From IMG/VR virus record IMGVR_UViG_2703718840_000011: 17,603 nt of DNA, one strand, 5' to 3'. Of the stretch, positions 2,792 through 12,868 are shown piece by piece (the first letter of the stretch is position 1; every line of letters begins with the position of its first letter). The DNA is from a virus (lineage: Duplodnaviria; Heunggongvirae; Uroviricota; Caudoviricetes). The notes under the pieces were generated by a model. That model did not search any database. It was not told where the DNA came from and was given only the letters and a program-made list of their open reading frames with translations. A program made the position numbers and the translations under genes.

Positions 2792-3376
2792 TTACTCCAT
2801 AACAGGGACAGCAGGCCACTCAATATCCGGTGCTACTGATGTATCAACACGGTTCAGCAACACCCGATACTTTTTCCAGGCTTCCAGCAATGAGGTTTCT
2901 TCCTCCGTTGCAATTTCCAGATCTGCAGCATCCTGAAGCGGCGCAATATGCTCACTGGCTACCTGCATCAGGTTGTTTTTTGTTTCTTCCGCCTCCCGGA
3001 TCCGGAACAGTTTTTCTGCTTCCGTATCCTTCACCCAGGCTGTGCCGTTCCACTTCTGAAACTCCCCTTCCGGCGATAACCAGGTAACATTTTCCGGTAA
3101 CGGACCGAGTTCAGAAATAAATAACTCGTCCCCTGACGCTACGTCATAAACCGTTTTACCCCGATGGTCTTCAACGAGATGCCACGATGCCTCATCACTG
3201 TTGAAAACAGCCACAAAGCCAGCAGGAATATCTGGTGGTGCAATATCGGTACTGTTTGCTGGCAGACCTGTATGAGGCGGAATATATGCGTCACCTTCAC
3301 CAATAAATTCATTAGTTCCGGCCAGCAGATTATAAATTTTTATGGTCCGTGCTTGTTCACTCATTCTGAATGCCAT
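2792..3376 (-). CDS. tfa: Tail fiber assembly protein (Tfa family, lambdoid type)
   Basis: 194-aa [57 protein letters not shown]... closely matches Tfa proteins of E. coli lambdoid prophages as I recall them. Start overlaps the stop of the upstream stf-type ORF (TAATG). Confidence 0.85.
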
Positions 3377-4455
3377 TATGCAAGCCTCACAATATAGTTA
3401 AATGCGATGTTTTTGACGGTGTTTTCCGCGTTACCCGCAGCGTTAACGGTGATGGTGTGTCCATGTGAACCAATCGCAACGGAGTGCGTATGCGCACCAA
3501 TACCTACAGTATGTGCATGTGCGCCAGAACTTGCTGCAGTACCAGACAGCGAGTGGGTATGAGCACCTGCTGACTGTGTCTGAATACGTTGATAATACGA
3601 TCTATAGGAAGAAGTCTCCGGGCTTACTTGATACTGTGAATTCTGGACATAAGTGAACCCACCGCCATCATAAAATGCTAACGCAGAACCGCCGCCTCCT
3701 GGCCAACGAATACCATTACCATGAGTATGAACACCGGCAGACCCCGTAGAGCCACTCAGACTGTGCGTATGCGCCCCGGTGTTATTCGTGGATTTAGTGC
3801 CGTAATCAAACGACGATGTGGTTTTCGTCCCTAAATCCGTACTGGATGCGCTGGCGCTGTGGGTGTGCGATTTAATGCCGTCCTGTTCCTGAGACAATAC
3901 GGCCCGGCCACTGGCGGGTTTGCCCTTGATTGTCCAGCCGCGCATATCTGGAATAACACCTGAAGGATAGGCAATAGCCAGTTTCGGATATGCTGCCTTA
4001 TCAAACGTCTGCCCCTGCATGATTGCATAACCTGCAGGTGGTGTATCTGATGGCCACGGCAGCGGAACACCTGGCGGAAACGCTTCAATATTTGCCGAGC
4101 CGTCAAATTTTACGCCGTTAATTGTCCTTGCAGTTTGCAATTTGGTTGCTGTGCTTGCATTACCCGATAAAGATCCAGTGATACCACCACTCGCGTTTAA
4201 TTTAGTTGCAATTGTAACATTGCCAGTATGGTTACTAATTATAAACGGCCTTAAGCTATTGTGCGTACCAAGACTGTTAAACTCATAACGGTATTTCACG
4301 TTAATCCCGTTCAGATCATCACTACCGGGAACGTTCGTCGAGGCATGGAGATACCCCGCGCTCAGCGTGGACTGATGTTCTGCTGCACTCGCTGGCGTAG
4401 CAGCGGCGACCTGCCAGACTACTGCGGACAAAATAACAGCACATAATTTACGCAT
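3376..4455 (-). CDS. Chimeric ORF: Lom-type signal peptide and N-terminus (~60 aa) fused in frame to the C-terminal part of a side tail fiber (Stf-type) protein
   Basis: N-terminus [59 protein letters not shown] is lambda Lom-like (signal peptide plus first beta strands). The rest is tail-fiber-like ([13 protein letters not shown], repeated HxH motifs, C-terminal [11 protein letters not shown]). Junction near 4270-4285. GAGG RBS upstream of the ATG. Confidence 0.7.
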
Positions 4456-4477
4456 AATTACCTCTCGCTTTTCTGCA

Positions 4478-4504
4478 ATAAAAAAGGCGCCATTTCTGGC
4501 GCCC
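4478..4504 (-). terminator. Rho-independent terminator between J remnant and lom' (tJ-like)
   Basis: On the minus strand: GGCGCC-AGAAAT-GGCGCC hairpin followed by TTTTTTATTGC, located between the J' stop and the lom' RBS. Confidence 0.55.
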
Positions 4505-4522
4505 GTATCTGGGTTATAAAAT

Positions 4523-5660
4523 TCAGCTAATCGTGATGCCTGCAGTGGCTTTCTTCATCACCACAACCAGCAAATCGCTGATACTTGCTGTGGGATACCA
4601 GTTATTTACCAGCCATGCTGACACCGAAAACTCCAGTGTCATGTGACCGTGACCGGCAGGCATATCAATAACACCACTGTAAATCAGCGTATTATCCAGC
4701 GCGGTACGGTTATAAATTTCAGCACCGTTTTTCCGTACTATCAGGCGGCATAACGAATAAATATCGTTATTCTCCCGCTCATGTTTAGCGCCGCTGAATG
4801 CCACCGCCGGAATAACAATCTGCCGGTCAAACGGCTGATCGTCATAAACCCTGACGGTGATGGTCCCTGATGGCCACCGTTCCGGTGCACGGGAGTCCCG
4901 GGGGAAAGCTTTGCCCACTGTTTTAACGAGATCGCCTTCAATCTGGTTGGCGGACAATTTTCCCAGAACCCGACAGTTCTCGTTAATCGTGACGTTGTTG
5001 AGCGTCCCGGAGTTCGCATTCACGTTACCGCTGATATCGGCATTTTTCGCCGTCAGCCGCCCGTCCGGTGTCAGGGAAAATGCCGGAGGATTACCGCCGC
5101 TGGTAATGGTCGGAGCCGTCAGGCGTTTCAGGAACACGTCGTTCATGAATATCTGATCGCCCTGACCAACAAACATCGGCTTTGTGTTGCCATTCGCAGG
5201 ATTAATCATCGCAATCCGGTCAGCAGCCAGAAGCACCTGACTCTGCATACCTGCTGGCGTATTCTCAATACCGGCTCCGATACCCGCAATATAAAGGCGT
5301 CCGTCCTTCATCTGCTGCAGTTTCACGGCCCACATGCTGTTCAGGTTATTATTTGTATCAACCTGAACTTTCTGTATCTGCTGGATTGCCGCACTCTGGT
5401 CTTCCAGTTTTTTATTGACGGTCTGCGTGATTTCATTGCTGACATTCGTAATGGACGTCCTGATTTCAGCCAGGTCCGGCGCAAGCTGACCGTTATCAAT
5501 CTGCGTCCACAACTCCTGGGCCAGATGTGTTTTCCCGATTTCTCCTTTGAAAAAATCCAGGTAACCTTCCGCATCATCGCTCGCCCGACCGACAGCCTCC
5601 ACGAATGCCGATTTGCCAACGGTGTTCACACTGCGAACGTAAAAATAATAATCATGGCCC
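4523..5660 (-). pseudogene. C-terminal ~380-aa fragment of J-type host specificity (central tail fiber) protein; N-terminal two-thirds deleted
   Basis: Translation from ...[39 protein letters not shown]... through [30 protein letters not shown] to the C-terminus matches the C-terminal region of lambda J as I recall it. The first ~34 codons of the track ORF (starting at 5758) are out-of-frame read-through of rusA sequence. Full J proteins are about 1100 aa. Confidence 0.7.
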
Positions 5661-5891
5661 GGTTTGATATTGATACTGGCGGCTATCCGGAGGAAACAAC
5701 ACGATCTCCACTGAAGCAGGTGCCGACGTTGGTTTCGGCAGGCGACGTAACTGCTCAACTATTGCTGCGCACGCCGCGCTCTGGAATTTGCGCCCCGCTG
5801 CGCTTATCAGACTCTTACCAGCAAACGCCCCTTTGTTGGGGTGTCGCCAGTACGTGTTCACGCTGGGCGGAAAAGGCAGGATCAGCTTCAT
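5652..5891 (-). pseudogene. rusA: RusA-family Holliday junction resolvase, N-terminal fragment (truncated at the deletion junction with J)
   Basis: MKLILPFPPSVNTYWRH... matches the RusA N-terminal LPxPPSxN motif. The ORF ends after 79 aa with non-homologous residues (YQYQTGP), whereas RusA is about 120 aa. GAGAGGGG RBS and ATGA overlap with the upstream gene are intact. Confidence 0.55.
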
Positions 5892-6214
5892 ACTTTCAGG
5901 CCCCTCTCATGTAACCAGTGGGCTGCACGCAGCCTGGCGTTTTCCTCACCGGCAAGCAGTGCGCGGATAATCCCGACCGCCTCGCTGTCGTCGTCCTTCA
6001 CAGCGGTATGAAGCGTTATCCCCCGTGCCACGCCACGCTTTATCGTGATGACGCCTTTTTTCTCCAGTGCGCGAAGATGCTCCACCGCTGCATTCACCGA
6101 ACGGTATCCCAGCATGGTTGCCACCTCCTGATTGGTTGGCGGAAAGCCACGCTCTTTCTGGTAAGAAATCAGCATATCCAGCACCTGCTGCTGGCATTGA
6201 GTTAACGTCGTCAT
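5888..6214 (-). CDS. Small winged-helix DNA-binding protein resembling the LexA N-terminal DNA-binding domain (no S24 peptidase domain)
   Basis: 108 aa; QQQVLDMLISYQKERGFPPTNQEVATMLGYRSVNAAVEHLRALEKKGVITIKRGVARGITL parallels the LexA DNA-binding domain (QQEVFDLI...[36 protein letters not shown]). ATGA overlaps at both ends and a GGAG RBS. Confidence 0.55.
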   Translation of the reverse strand: MTTLTQCQQQVLDMLISYQKERGFPPTNQEVATMLGYRSVNAAVEHLRALEKKGVITIKRGVARGITLHTAVKDDDSEAVGIIRALLAGEENARLRAAHWLHERGLKV

Positions 6215-6864
6215 GCCGCCATCTCCCTGACCAGTTTTTCCGCCTGCTGGCGAACCTGCACCAGAAAGGCTTCACCACATGCCTCAAGTTCATCGCGCCC
6301 GATGTAGCTGATTGCCGGTCCCTTCCAGGTCTTGTCGAAAACAGCAATAGCACCAGCGAAGAAAGCGCCTGTCGGCACCTGCTTCTCATCCTTCGGGATA
6401 AACCAGGCAGGCAGTTCAAAACCAATACGCCCGCGAATAAAAGCAATATGGTCCGCATCTTCCGGCCACCACACTTCGCTGGTGGCAGCTTTGATCAGGA
6501 AAACATAGCGCCCGCCCTTATCACGCATGGCACTGGCATGTTTCATGATGTAACGCATGCCGGTGATGTATTGTCCCTCATGCTGACTGGCGCGGCTGTA
6601 TGGGGGATTACCAAAGGCAGCACCTTTAAGCTCCGCAAGACGTTCTGACCAGTCATGCGCCAGCGCGTTATCTTCCGCCGTGTAATACGCGGCACATTTG
6701 GCGTTATCACCGTCAGTAAACAGATCCAGAACAAACGGGCCAAACAGGGTGTTAATTCCCCAGAAAATGTTGTCCGGCGTGCGCCACTGATCGCCCACTT
6801 CCTTCAGTTCATGGGCTGGTTTGTTCCGCAGTTCCACCAGCGCCTGGCAATATTTATTACTCAT
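6211..6864 (-). CDS. Phage-type DNA N6-adenine methyltransferase (Dam family)
   Basis: MSNKYCQALVELRNKPAHELKEVGDQWRTPDNIFWGINTLFGPFVLDLFTDGDNAKCAAYYTAEDNALAHDW... with catalytic NPPY motif (GNPPYS). I place the start at the internal ATG (6864, residue 12 of the track ORF), which overlaps the O-like stop by 1 nt and is preceded by a GGGGG RBS. Confidence 0.8.
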   Translation of the reverse strand: MSNKYCQALVELRNKPAHELKEVGDQWRTPDNIFWGINTLFGPFVLDLFTDGDNAKCAAYYTAEDNALAHDWSERLAELKGAAFGNPPYSRASQHEGQYITGMRYIMKHASAMRDKGGRYVFLIKAATSEVWWPEDADHIAFIRGRIGFELPAWFIPKDEKQVPTGAFFAGAIAVFDKTWKGPAISYIGRDELEACGEAFLVQVRQQAEKLVREMAA

Positions 6865-7817
6865 TAAGCCCCCACGTAATTCCCTGACAGATACCACTCT
6901 TCACCCGATGCAGCGCGCTTGCTGCTTTTCCGTAAACACCGCTCTTCGCGTTTTTCGGTGTACGTGCTGACGGACGGCGATAAGCGCAGGGAAAGCTCAT
7001 CCCATTTTTCCCGCAACTTCGACGGGCTGAGCACGTTACGGCACCAGAACGGATCGCGGCTGACGCGGCTGTACATCTCGCAGATTTGTTTGTGAGTACG
7101 ACCATCCTGCACACACATCAGGCGAATTTCGTTTGCCCAGGCTGTCCAGTTCGGTTCTTTGGGACGAACCACCTCGCCGTCACATTCGGCGGCTTGCTCG
7201 TACAGGGCGATGATTTTTTTCCAGAGCCACTGTGCGCAGGTCAAATCATCCTGCGTTCCCCACTGGCGCTTTTTAGGGCTGAATACAACCGCATCAGGAT
7301 GGCGAGTTAAAAAATCCTGTTCATCCGTCTGCGTGTCCGGTTGCGAAGCGTCCGGACGAGAAGGTTTTTTATCTGACGGATCATGTTTTGATTTTACTGA
7401 CGGATCCCCGCCAGATTCTGACGGGTGAAAACCCGCTTTTTTGCCAGATTTCGACGCATCAAATTTTGACGGGTCAGATTTTGATGCGTCAGATTTTGAC
7501 GGGTCAGAATCTGACAGTTGAGAAAATGCCGCTGCCTGAAGCTTCGCAACGTTAAGCTGATAAACATTCGACGCATTGCGGTTACCCTGGCGACGCGCCT
7601 TACGCGTTAACCAGCCTTCTGCTTCCAGCCGTGCGATAGCCGTTCTGACGGTACTCATCCCCGCGCCAATCTGACGGGCAATGGTTTCAATTGATGGCCA
7701 GCACACACCTTCGTCATTACTGAAATCAGCCAGGCGGGCCATAATTGCCACGCTGGATAATTTCATGCCTGATGCAGCGCAACCATCCCATACATAGCCG
7801 GTTAATTTAGTGCTCAT
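6864..7817 (-). CDS. Replication initiator, lambda O-like (N-terminal wHTH origin-binding domain, repetitive acidic linker, C-terminal domain)
   Basis: 317 aa; N-terminus MSTKLTGYVWDGCAASGMKLSSVAIMARLADFSNDEGVCWPSIETIARQIGAGMSTVRTAIARLEAEGWL is typical of phage replication O-type HTH domains. An internal repetitive linker (SDSDPSKSDASKSDPSKFDASKSGKK) is encoded by an iteron array. GAGG RBS 6 nt upstream. Confidence 0.7.
   Translation of the reverse strand: MSTKLTGYVWDGCAASGMKLSSVAIMARLADFSNDEGVCWPSIETIARQIGAGMSTVRTAIARLEAEGWLTRKARRQGNRNASNVYQLNVAKLQAAAFSQLSDSDPSKSDASKSDPSKFDASKSGKKAGFHPSESGGDPSVKSKHDPSDKKPSRPDASQPDTQTDEQDFLTRHPDAVVFSPKKRQWGTQDDLTCAQWLWKKIIALYEQAAECDGEVVRPKEPNWTAWANEIRLMCVQDGRTHKQICEMYSRVSRDPFWCRNVLSPSKLREKWDELSLRLSPSVSTYTEKREERCLRKSSKRAASGEEWYLSGNYVGA
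7369..7517. repeat. Iteron array (candidate phage origin of replication) inside the O-like gene
   Basis: Seen directly: about 8 copies of a ~15-bp unit with core (A/C)AGATTTTGACGGGTC. The last five (about 7445-7517) are strictly tandem: cagatttcgacgcat / caaattttgacgggt / cagattttgatgcgt / cagattttgacgggt / cagaatctgacag. Parallels ori-lambda, which lies within O. Confidence 0.55.
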
Positions 7818-7826
7818 GACCGACCT

Positions 7827-8165
7827 CTACTTCCCTGAATTTACGACGAAACTGTTCGAGCGGGCTGAAGCACTCATGCTCATAGCCTTCGCGGAGGTAG
7901 ATAACCCGTTGTGTTTCCGGCTCCCAACGAATGACTCTGACGGGCACTCCGTAGTGATCTTTGAACCAGCGGTTAACTTGTCGCAAAGGACTGTCTCCTT
8001 CTGCCGGTTGAAATCACCCACAGCCCACTCTGCAAAGCTGTGGGTTACAATTTCCCTGTCACCTGGTACATTTACTGCATAGCAATACTCCACCTTCGCT
8101 TTTCCACCCGGTACAGGAAGTGCAATCAGTTGCGAGCGACGGTAGTGTGTTGTTAAACTGTTCAT
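7827..8165 (-). CDS. Hypothetical protein (112 aa) between cII-like and O-like genes
   Basis: Start overlaps the cII-like stop (ATGA) and the stop lies 10 nt before the O-like start. The C-terminal third is low-complexity, so the true extent is uncertain. No family recognised. Confidence 0.4.
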
Positions 8166-11379: not shown

Positions 11380-12204
11380 ATGTCTCAGAACTTAGACGCA
11401 ACCGCAATTAATCAAATCCATGCCCTTATTTCTGCTCAGGGTGTTAATGAAATTATCAGTAAGATTGGTGCCGATGCTGTGGCATTGCCTGAGAATTTCC
11501 GCATTCATGATCTGGAAAAATTTAATTTAAATCGCTTCCGTTTCCGTGGTGCGCTTTCCACTGCCAGCATCGATGACTTTACCCGTTATTCTAAAGATCT
11601 TGCAGATGAAGGCACCCGCTGCTTTATCGATGCTGATAATATGCGTGCCGTCAGTGTGCTTAACCTGGGTACTATTGATGAACCAGGTCACGCAGATAAC
11701 ACCGCCACTCTCAAACTGAAAAAGACAGCACCGTTCTCTGCCCTGTTGTCTGTTAACGGCGAGCGTAACTCCCAGAAGTCACTGGCAGAATGGATTGAAG
11801 ACTGGGCCGACTACCTTGTGGGCTTTGATGCTAATGGTGACGCCATTCAGGCAACCAAAGCTGCTGCGGCGATCCGTAAAATCACAATTGAAGCGAACCA
11901 GACCGCTGATTTTGAAGATAATGACTTCAGCGGCAAACGCTCCCTGATGGAGTCTGTCGAAGCGAAGACCAAAGACATTATGCCTGTGGCATTTGAATTT
12001 AAATGCGTTCCGTTTGAAGGTCTGAAAGAACGTCCGTTTAAATTACGCCTCAGCATTATCACTGGCGATCGTCCTGTACTGGTTCTGCGCATTATTCAGC
12101 TGGAAGCGGTGCAGGAAGAAATGGCTAACGAATTTCGTGATCTGCTTGTTGAGAAATTCAAAGACAGCAAAGTAGAAACCTTTATTGGTACTTTCACCGC
12201 CTGA
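11380..12204 (+). CDS. yfdQ: YfdQ-like prophage protein (274 aa), function unknown
   Basis: 274-aa ORF with GAGGA RBS. Length, N-terminus ([14 protein letters not shown]...) and the yfdP-Q-R-S-T gene order match my recollection of the CPS-53/KplE1 yfdQ gene. Symbol given on that recollection, not a search. Confidence 0.7.
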
Positions 12205-12216
12205 TTTCATTACTGC

Positions 12217-12240
12217 AAATGCCCCTGCGGGGGCATTTAT
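12217..12240 (+). terminator. Hairpin (AAATGCCCC-TGCG-GGGGCATTT) after the yfdQ-like gene; weak terminator or attenuator
   Basis: 9-bp GC-rich stem seen directly, with only a short T tract (ATTTAT). Confidence 0.35.
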
Positions 12241-12331
12241 GGAAACGTAATTAACTCAATAATCACCGGATGGTGAGGGCTTCCTTTTACCAGAATTCAG
12301 CGCGGTGCAGTGCATATACGTGGAGAATAAA

Positions 12332-12868
12332 ATGTCATTTATTAAAACTTTTTCCGGGAAGCATTTTTATTATGACAAGATAAATAAAGACGACATCGAT
12401 ATTAACGATATCGCGGTTTCCCTTTCAAATATCTGTCGCTTTGCCGGTCATCTTTCGCACTTCTACAGCGTCGCCCAACATGCGGTTCTTTGCAGCATGC
12501 TGGTGCCGCAGGAATTTGCTTTTGAAGCGTTAATGCATGATGCAACAGAAGCGTATTGCCAGGACATCCCGGCTCCACTGAAACGCCTTCTTCCTGACTA
12601 TAAACGGATGGAAGAAAAAATAGACGCCGTAATCCGTGAGAAATACGGGTTACCCCCGGTTATGAGCACGCCCGTGAAATATGCCGATCTCATCATGCTG
12701 GCAACCGAACGCCGCGATCTCGGGCTTGATGATGGCTCTTTCTGGCCTGTACTGGAAGGTATCCCGGCAACAGAGATGTTCAAAGTGATTCCACTGTCGC
12801 CAGGCCATGCCTATGGGATGTTTATGGAACGTTTTAACGAGTTATCGGAGTTACGCAAATGCGCATGA
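12332..12868 (+). CDS. yfdR: HD-domain phosphohydrolase (YfbR-type 5'-deoxynucleotidase fold), YfdR-like
   Basis: Start at the internal ATG (MSFIKTFSGKHFYYDKIN) preceded by GGAGAATAAA, giving 178 aa. H...HD metal-binding motifs (SVAQHAV, ALMHDATEAY). Confidence 0.75.
   Translation: MSFIKTFSGKHFYYDKINKDDIDINDIAVSLSNICRFAGHLSHFYSVAQHAVLCSMLVPQEFAFEALMHDATEAYCQDIPAPLKRLLPDYKRMEEKIDAVIREKYGLPPVMSTPVKYADLIMLATERRDLGLDDGSFWPVLEGIPATEMFKVIPLSPGHAYGMFMERFNELSELRKCA

Follow-up and report, generated by a model that had tools for sequence, protein, structure and literature searches.

A candidate λ-style replication origin within the O-like initiator gene of a prophage remnant

The DNA analysed here, referred to throughout as the window, is a stretch of 17,603 nucleotides from a Caudoviricetes prophage (IMG/VR virus record IMGVR_UViG_2703718840_000011). 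Its early region contains a cI-like repressor gene, cro, a cII/YmfL-like gene, a small open reading frame (ORF), an O-like replication initiator gene, a phage Dam methylase gene (positions 6211–6897, minus strand, just downstream of the initiator gene) and a LexA-like gene. The same gene order is present in intact prophages and in phage SfII, where the genes downstream of the initiator are PerC/yfdN, Dam, LexA-like, RusA, KilA-N, DUF968 and Q. Within the initiator gene lies an array of short repeats which a sequence-only reading of the window had put forward as a candidate replication origin, and this array is the subject of the present report.

The O-like initiator gene (6864–7817, minus strand) encodes a protein of 317 amino acids, of which codons 1–291 are native and the last 26 come from PerC/yfdN (see below). 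The protein matches PHROG 391, "replication initiation O-like", with an E value of 1e-129 (residues 1–293 against profile positions 1–281 of 298), and BLASTP gives 31% identity to λ O (E 1e-25), with λ O aligned only from residue 70 onward. The N-terminal winged-helix DNA-binding domain (amino acids 1–100; 7518–7817, minus strand), presumed to be the part that binds the array, is recognized by Pfam HTH_36 (4.4e-11, amino acids 23–70) and by related winged-helix models, and comparison with solved structures gives only weak matches of the MarR winged-helix type. No Pfam match to Phage_rep_O (PF04492), the family that marks the λ type, is found in the initiator. The N-terminal domain is 72–90% identical in 70 loci of other Enterobacterales. 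The λ-O-type C-terminal domain (amino acids 166–277; 6987–7322, minus strand) is 39.3% identical by tblastn to λ positions 39196–39495 (E 1e-17), and BLASTP pairs initiator amino acids 182–277 with λ O 187–270. The linker between the two domains is rich in Ser, Asp, Pro and Lys.

The whole array (7356–7517) occupies codons 101–154 on the minus strand and so lies, as the sequence-only reading had it, in the linker-coding part of the gene. It includes five head-to-tail 15-base-pair (bp) units (7443–7517), each made up of an 11-bp core and a 4-bp variable spacer and each in frame on the coding (minus) strand: u1 (7503–7517, CTGTCAGATTCTGAC), u2 (7488–7502, CCGTCAAAATCTGAC), u3 (7473–7487, GCATCAAAATCTGAC), u4 (7458–7472, CCGTCAAAATTTGAT) and u5 (7443–7457, GCGTCGAAATCTGGC). 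They are translated into pentapeptides of the SDxSK type, xS(K/D)(S/F)(D/G). An 18-bp spacer (7425–7442, coding strand AAAAAAGCGGGTTTTCAC) separates u5 from an isolated 15-bp unit on the same strand, u6 (7410–7424, CCGTCAGAATCTGGC), and the 3' TTTCAC of the spacer is part of the most conserved DNA block of the array, 42 bp long (7389–7430, TTTCACCCGTCAGAATCTGGCGGGGATCCGTCAGTAAAATCA), which spans u6 and the first of two GATC sites. The core in the six units is TCA(A/G)AATCTGA, an 11-bp near-palindrome of 5+1+5 form. Two A-rich 24-bp units, u7 (7380–7403) and u8 (7356–7379), start with CCGTCAG, and because GAT precedes this motif in both, GATC sites are found at 7379–7382 and 7403–7406. The original count of about eight copies of a ~15-bp unit is right for the CCGTCA motif, which occurs eight times, but only six units carry the full core.

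Tandem Repeats Finder reports the segment 7445–7508 of the window with a period of 15 (4.3 copies, 81% matches) or, alternatively, of 30 (2.1 copies, 88% matches). The consensus 15-mer CAGATTTTGACGGGT has six matches with up to three mismatches, none of them outside 7412–7513, where 0.49 would be expected by chance, and none of 200 shuffles contained six or more; 6 of the 11 window matches to TGACGGRTC (at most one mismatch) cluster at the array. Across the array the window and phage SfII are identical at 184 of 186 nucleotides, i.e. the window's copy is intact. A perfect palindrome, CGTCCGGACG (7349–7358), marks the start of the segment shared with phage mEp460, where the origin module gives way to the C-terminal module; it is not kept in homologues with other C-terminal domains, so any role for it is uncertain.

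For comparison, 72 loci encoding the N-terminal domain were assembled, one genome per species, from Shigella/Escherichia, Citrobacter, Kosakonia, Kluyvera, Buttiauxella, Yersinia, Pantoea, Rahnella, Providencia, Proteus and others, and 68 of the genes were usable. Loci L016, L038, L043 and L085, labelled Vagococcus, Chryseobacterium, Martelella and "Elizabethkingia phage EKP1", carry an enterobacterial-type module (61–88% identity), and their non-enterobacterial labels are likely due to contamination or mislabelling. The pentapeptide region is present in all 68 usable genes with 2–10 units each, and the viable phages SfII and SfIV have the array as well; the repeats are thus not missing from functional homologues, a finding that the sequence-only reading had named as one that would speak against its proposal. 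Unit number also differs among phages, in which the same 160-amino-acid query matches 480, 495, 510 or 525 nucleotides. Such variation, together with units that are exactly in frame and a Ser/Asp/Pro/Lys-rich product, would fit a low-complexity SDxSK peptide linker that grows and shrinks by slippage, the DNA repeats being a by-product with no role in cis.

This protein-level explanation is largely refuted by the codons used, and we regard it as very unlikely. The Ser in D-x-S is encoded by TCA in 304 of 352 cases in the array and in 16% elsewhere in the same genes, the Ser before D by TCT in 211 of 280 cases and in 8% elsewhere, and Lys by AAA in 97% and 62%, respectively. Synonymous sites of the flanking N-terminal domain are saturated (mean top-codon frequency 0.50 at conserved four- and six-fold degenerate residues in the 68 genes), whereas third codon positions of the 42-bp block have a mean top-base frequency of 0.90 in these genes, and two first positions whose changes alter the amino acid vary (D/H 0.62, S/P 0.54); synonymous positions are fixed across 68 species where amino-acid-changing ones are not. 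Where both members of a gene pair have the same residue, the codon is also the same at a frequency of 0.87 in the block and 0.40 in the N-terminal domain; the comparison covered 1,633 distant pairs (N-terminal identity below 85%), and the block had the higher value in every one. When 328 units are stacked in phase as a logo, none of the 11 core positions, three of which are third-codon positions, falls below 1.25 bits, and the 4-nucleotide spacer has 0.43–0.94 bits, an 11+4 pattern and not a codon periodicity. Finally, gene L17 of phiP27, whose N-terminal domain is 60% identical, keeps one unit, TTTGACCCTTCAGAATCTGG, out of frame, so that it reads VLTLQNL and not FDPSESG. Together, codon bias, block conservation, the logo and the change of reading frame in phiP27 make the nucleotides the selected object and the peptide a tolerant linker. 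The DNA of the array, not the encoded peptide, is under purifying selection, and the array is a clear case of a coding segment in which nucleotides are more constrained than amino acids.

The two halves of the core change jointly between lineages, a further point against a peptide linker: the core is TCAGAnTCTGA in phiP27 and EKP1, and TCAAAnTTTGA in Klebsiella phage Kp4866-6. Such joint change would be expected of sites for a symmetric dimer on duplex DNA, and a 5+1+5 symmetry within 11 nucleotides, typical of dimer sites of that kind, cannot form an RNA hairpin. This bears on the idea that the conserved nucleotides act as RNA, either as structure in the mRNA or in an antisense transcript, which could draw on the observations that the segment folds better as a single strand than shuffled versions do (z = -3.7) and that a terminator-like hairpin with a T-run is present on the antisense (plus) strand at 7422–7435, in the u5–u6 spacer. 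That hairpin is not kept in the Klebsiella copy, however, and a search of Rfam gave no family matching at the array; a role as RNA appears extremely improbable.

The array travels with the N-terminal domain of the initiator. In the viable phages SfII, SfIV, Kati and PhiR49_1, and in vB_EcoM-689R6, residues 1–160 are 99–100% identical to those of the window; for phiNP and several Klebsiella phages the figure is 75–85%. The same N-terminus and array are joined to a Phg_2220_C C-terminus in Yersinia phage YeP3 and Citrobacter phage phiNP, and the λ-O-type C-terminus of the window is found in only six other collected homologues (species-level loci and added phage copies). In all, the array and the N-terminal domain stay together in combination with at least three types of C-terminal domain. 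The reverse exchange is seen in phage mEp460_4F5, whose C-terminus is 94.6% identical to that of the window, with an array and an A-rich tract at the same place and with PerC, Dam, LexA-like and RusA genes downstream as in the window's relatives, but whose N-terminal domain is unrelated and without a Pfam match, and whose repeat is likewise unrelated (23 bp × 5.4, GGTCAAAATGACACGATGCCATCG). Since the array is swapped with the N-terminal and not the C-terminal domain, array and N-terminal domain form one specificity cassette. Phages λ, 434, phi80 and their relatives classically show pairing of this sort. Among proteins with more distant HTH_36 domains, repeats of their own also follow immediately behind the domain: three copies of GGGGTGGGGCAGGAGCTGCCC in the O gene of phage Min27 (L081 2027–2092) and two copies of GGTCAAATTCCGACC in Vibrio phage Va_PF430-3_p42 (L083 2114–2167). 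We note that the segment of mEp460_4F5 in question (L004 2308–2484), 5.4 copies of the 23-bp unit and then 3.2 copies of an A-rich 12-mer, is itself a candidate origin.

At least 88% of the 68 genes keep the two GATC sites of the A-rich units, which are spaced 24 bp apart, and this conserved pair and the nearby phage Dam gene suggest that the putative origin may be under methylation or SeqA control. The same two observations could be taken to mean that the array is bound by a host factor, or is a Dam/SeqA-related site, and is not a target of the phage initiator. We consider this highly improbable: GATC occurs only in u7 and u8 and in none of the six core units, SfIV reportedly has no methylase yet has the same initiator gene, and the array changes along with the N-terminal domain, unlike a site for a host factor. 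Protein-only, RNA-level and host-factor explanations are all poorly supported.

The sequence-only reading had likened the array to ori-λ, and sequence comparison bears this out, in that the C-terminal domain is homologous to that of λ O and the array is situated where ori-λ would be. In the λ record iterons 1–4 are at 39034–39118, which are O codons 117–145, and are followed by an A-rich tract; the protein alignment sets codons 100–160 of the window's gene opposite the iteron part of λ O. In both, the sites are in the segment that encodes the linker between the DNA-binding and C-terminal domains, are dyad-symmetric and are translated into a repetitive peptide, and in both the gene is driven from a pR-type early operon, cI-cro-cII-O. 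The most A/T-rich 40-bp windows of the initiator gene start at 7359 and 7361 (70%, compared with 47% gene-wide), so that the A/T maximum immediately adjoins the array on its C-terminal side, in the same relative place as in λ (80%) and mEp460 (70%). The differences are that the window's N-terminal domain is HTH_36 and that of λ is Phage_rep_O, that the window has 5+1 units and λ four, and that the window's module has no P gene; those of site size, spacing and A/T content are taken up below.

Origins of theta plasmids of the P1, F, R6K and pSC101 type also have repeated short initiator sites adjoining an A/T-rich region, and GATC sites are found in the melting region of P1 oriR and of oriC. The array resembles these in its multiple short sites next to an A/T-rich region and in the GATC sites of its putative melting region. 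Plasmid iterons are usually 17–22-bp direct repeats outside the rep gene, each bound by a monomer, whereas the units of the window are palindromic, 15 bp apart and inside the gene.

The variable number of units has a parallel in Shiga toxin (Stx) phages. According to Kozlowska et al. 2020 (PMC7466680), phages 933W and P27 have six iterons and an O protein longer by 13 amino acids, and iteron number varies among related phages and lengthens O accordingly. This variation is similar to the 2–10 units and five-amino-acid steps of the window's family; the difference is that the proteins described there are λ-type O proteins with experimentally shown binding, and the window's family has another binding domain. 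We assume that their work does not extend to the phiP27 of the present family, as the N-terminus of phiP27 gene L17 is HTH_36 and the proteins they report are λ-type O.

From these comparisons it is probable that the array is the recognition-site part of a λ-style origin, located where the prophage's own initiator gene encodes the linker and bound by the N-terminal domain of that initiator. The design, an origin within the initiator gene, is well known. The presence of the array in all 68 usable homologues, its conservation at the nucleotide level and its co-inheritance with the N-terminal domain all favour the candidate origin that the sequence-only reading had proposed. In such an origin, dimers of the N-terminal domain would bind the 11-bp cores of u1–u6 and build an O-some-like complex, the A-rich 24-mers (7356–7403, with the two GATC sites) would melt as the candidate DNA-unwinding region, and the λ-O-type C-terminal domain would then recruit the host helicase. 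As the module encodes no P, DnaC or DnaB, recruitment would have to be direct or through a host loader.

Several points weigh against an origin. Nucleotide-level constraint proves a cis-acting DNA function and not origin firing. The 11-bp cores are in a strict 15-bp head-to-tail arrangement, whereas λ has 18-bp sites spaced 20–24 bp apart, and, at a centre-to-centre distance of 15 bp, each site is rotated by about 150 degrees around the helix relative to the next. The A/T-rich stretch has just 68–70% A/T, compared with 80% in λ. Neither the window nor the intact prophages nor SfII have a P, DnaC or DnaB gene in the module, and between 7200 and 7700 there are no DnaA boxes of note, the sole match with at most one mismatch being at 7217; IHF (integration host factor) sites of note are likewise absent from this interval. 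In the literature searched we found no binding, footprint, plasmid-replication or marker-frequency data for the window's family and no experimentally defined origin for SfII or SfIV, and no small plasmid dependent on the module was found. Matches in plasmid records were considered as a possible small replicon, and proved uninformative, being either prophages within large records or circular records of ~15 kb in which the gene is truncated.

These points leave room for the explanation that the initiator or some other protein of the phage binds the sites for purposes of control, such as autoregulation of the pR operon, a transcription roadblock, titration or handcuffing, and that the true origin is elsewhere in the phage. 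DNA-level constraint and co-inheritance with the binding domain would fit any function of cognate sites, and the weakness of the A/T-rich stretch and the lack of an encoded helicase loader also suit this explanation. On the other hand, the density of the core motif is 29 per kb in the linkers and drops to 0.063 per kb, in scattered matches, over the remaining 412 kb of the 68 loci, which means that there is no second array to serve as the real origin. An apparent second cluster ~2.8 kb upstream, in a few related Providencia loci, was rejected since it is a single palindromic site counted on both strands. Moreover, the position and order of iterons, A-rich tract and C-terminal domain copy ori-λ, and mEp460 has the same order with unrelated repeats. 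We therefore consider a purely regulatory array unlikely, and an origin the better reading of the locus.

The proposal had been made with the proviso that the initiator is intact, and this it is not. Relative to E. coli CT282, 479 bp are missing from the window, with a junction at 6943/6944 that has a 2-bp microhomology (TC). The deletion replaced the last 22 codons: the initiator is identical to the intact 313-amino-acid CT282 version through residue 291, and codon 291 is fused in frame to the last 26 codons of PerC/yfdN, a foreign 3' end that occupies 6864–6944 (minus strand); residues 290–317 match the PerC-type PHROG 2608. The conserved terminal motif DYS..P.GFR, which is kept in five of the six other λ-O-type homologues and partly in the sixth (L060), is lost. 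All top-ranked complete E. coli genomes have the undeleted form, and the deletion allele was not found among these.

The prophage as a whole is a remnant, in which a RusA fragment adjoins tail-gene fragments left of the LexA-like gene, and Q and the lysis and morphogenesis genes are gone. With a damaged initiator and such a remnant, self-driven replication is doubtful; the array itself is intact, and firing by the initiator of a related phage acting in trans is likelier than self-driven firing. The practical message for the window is that the candidate origin is intact and the initiator is not. Other decayed copies were seen in the comparison set: in two E. coli loci (L059 and L076) the gene is interrupted after codon 79, from where the reading frame continues into unrelated sequence (455 amino acids), and in Rouxiella badensis (L054) there are stop codons within the conserved block while the tandem units are still there.

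A broader proposal, which we offer tentatively and think rather doubtful, is that HTH_36, the 15-bp in-frame array and the GATC-bearing 24-mers make up a portable origin-plus-specificity cassette that works with several unrelated C-terminal recruitment domains and without a phage helicase loader, that YfdQRST of the same prophage may free host DnaB-DnaC for it, and that intact arrays in cryptic prophages could be fired in trans by an SfII-like phage. Were such arrays fired in trans, local over-replication of the chromosome would result, with consequences for exclusion or lateral transduction. The initiator gene has matches in 2,667 of 5,426 complete E. coli genomes and is also present in the Shigella serotype-converting phages SfII and SfIV. 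The comparison gives a map that comprises the six 11-bp cores, the nearly invariant block of 42 bp and both GATC sites and places the module boundary near 7356, and it raises the biological question of how a λ-O-type C-terminal domain recruits the helicase without P.

Of the other genes in the window, YfdQ (DUF2303) and YfdR-like genes are found at 11380–12868 on the plus strand. YfdR of prophage CPS-53 has been reported to bind DnaA and inhibit host initiation (PMC4776307), and this may be relevant where, as here, a phage replication module lacks a helicase loader. Just upstream of the initiator gene, an ORF of 112 amino acids (7827–8165, minus strand) matches PHROG 1170 (1.7e-70) and is annotated in SfII; it overlaps, on the same strand, a RefSeq-annotated ORF of 59 amino acids (7807–7986, minus strand) that matches Pfam DUF4222 (5e-19).

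Remnants of tail genes at 2792–5760 adjoin the early region, and homology to the intact prophage begins at about 5680, within the RusA fragment. They include a C-terminal fragment of J (4523–5758), an ORF that joins 63 amino acids of Lom to a tail-fibre protein (3376–4455) and a tail-fibre assembly gene (2792–3376). Within the last of these, positions 2835–3033 (minus strand) give a full-length match to Rfam IS009 with a score of 221 bits (gathering score 117).

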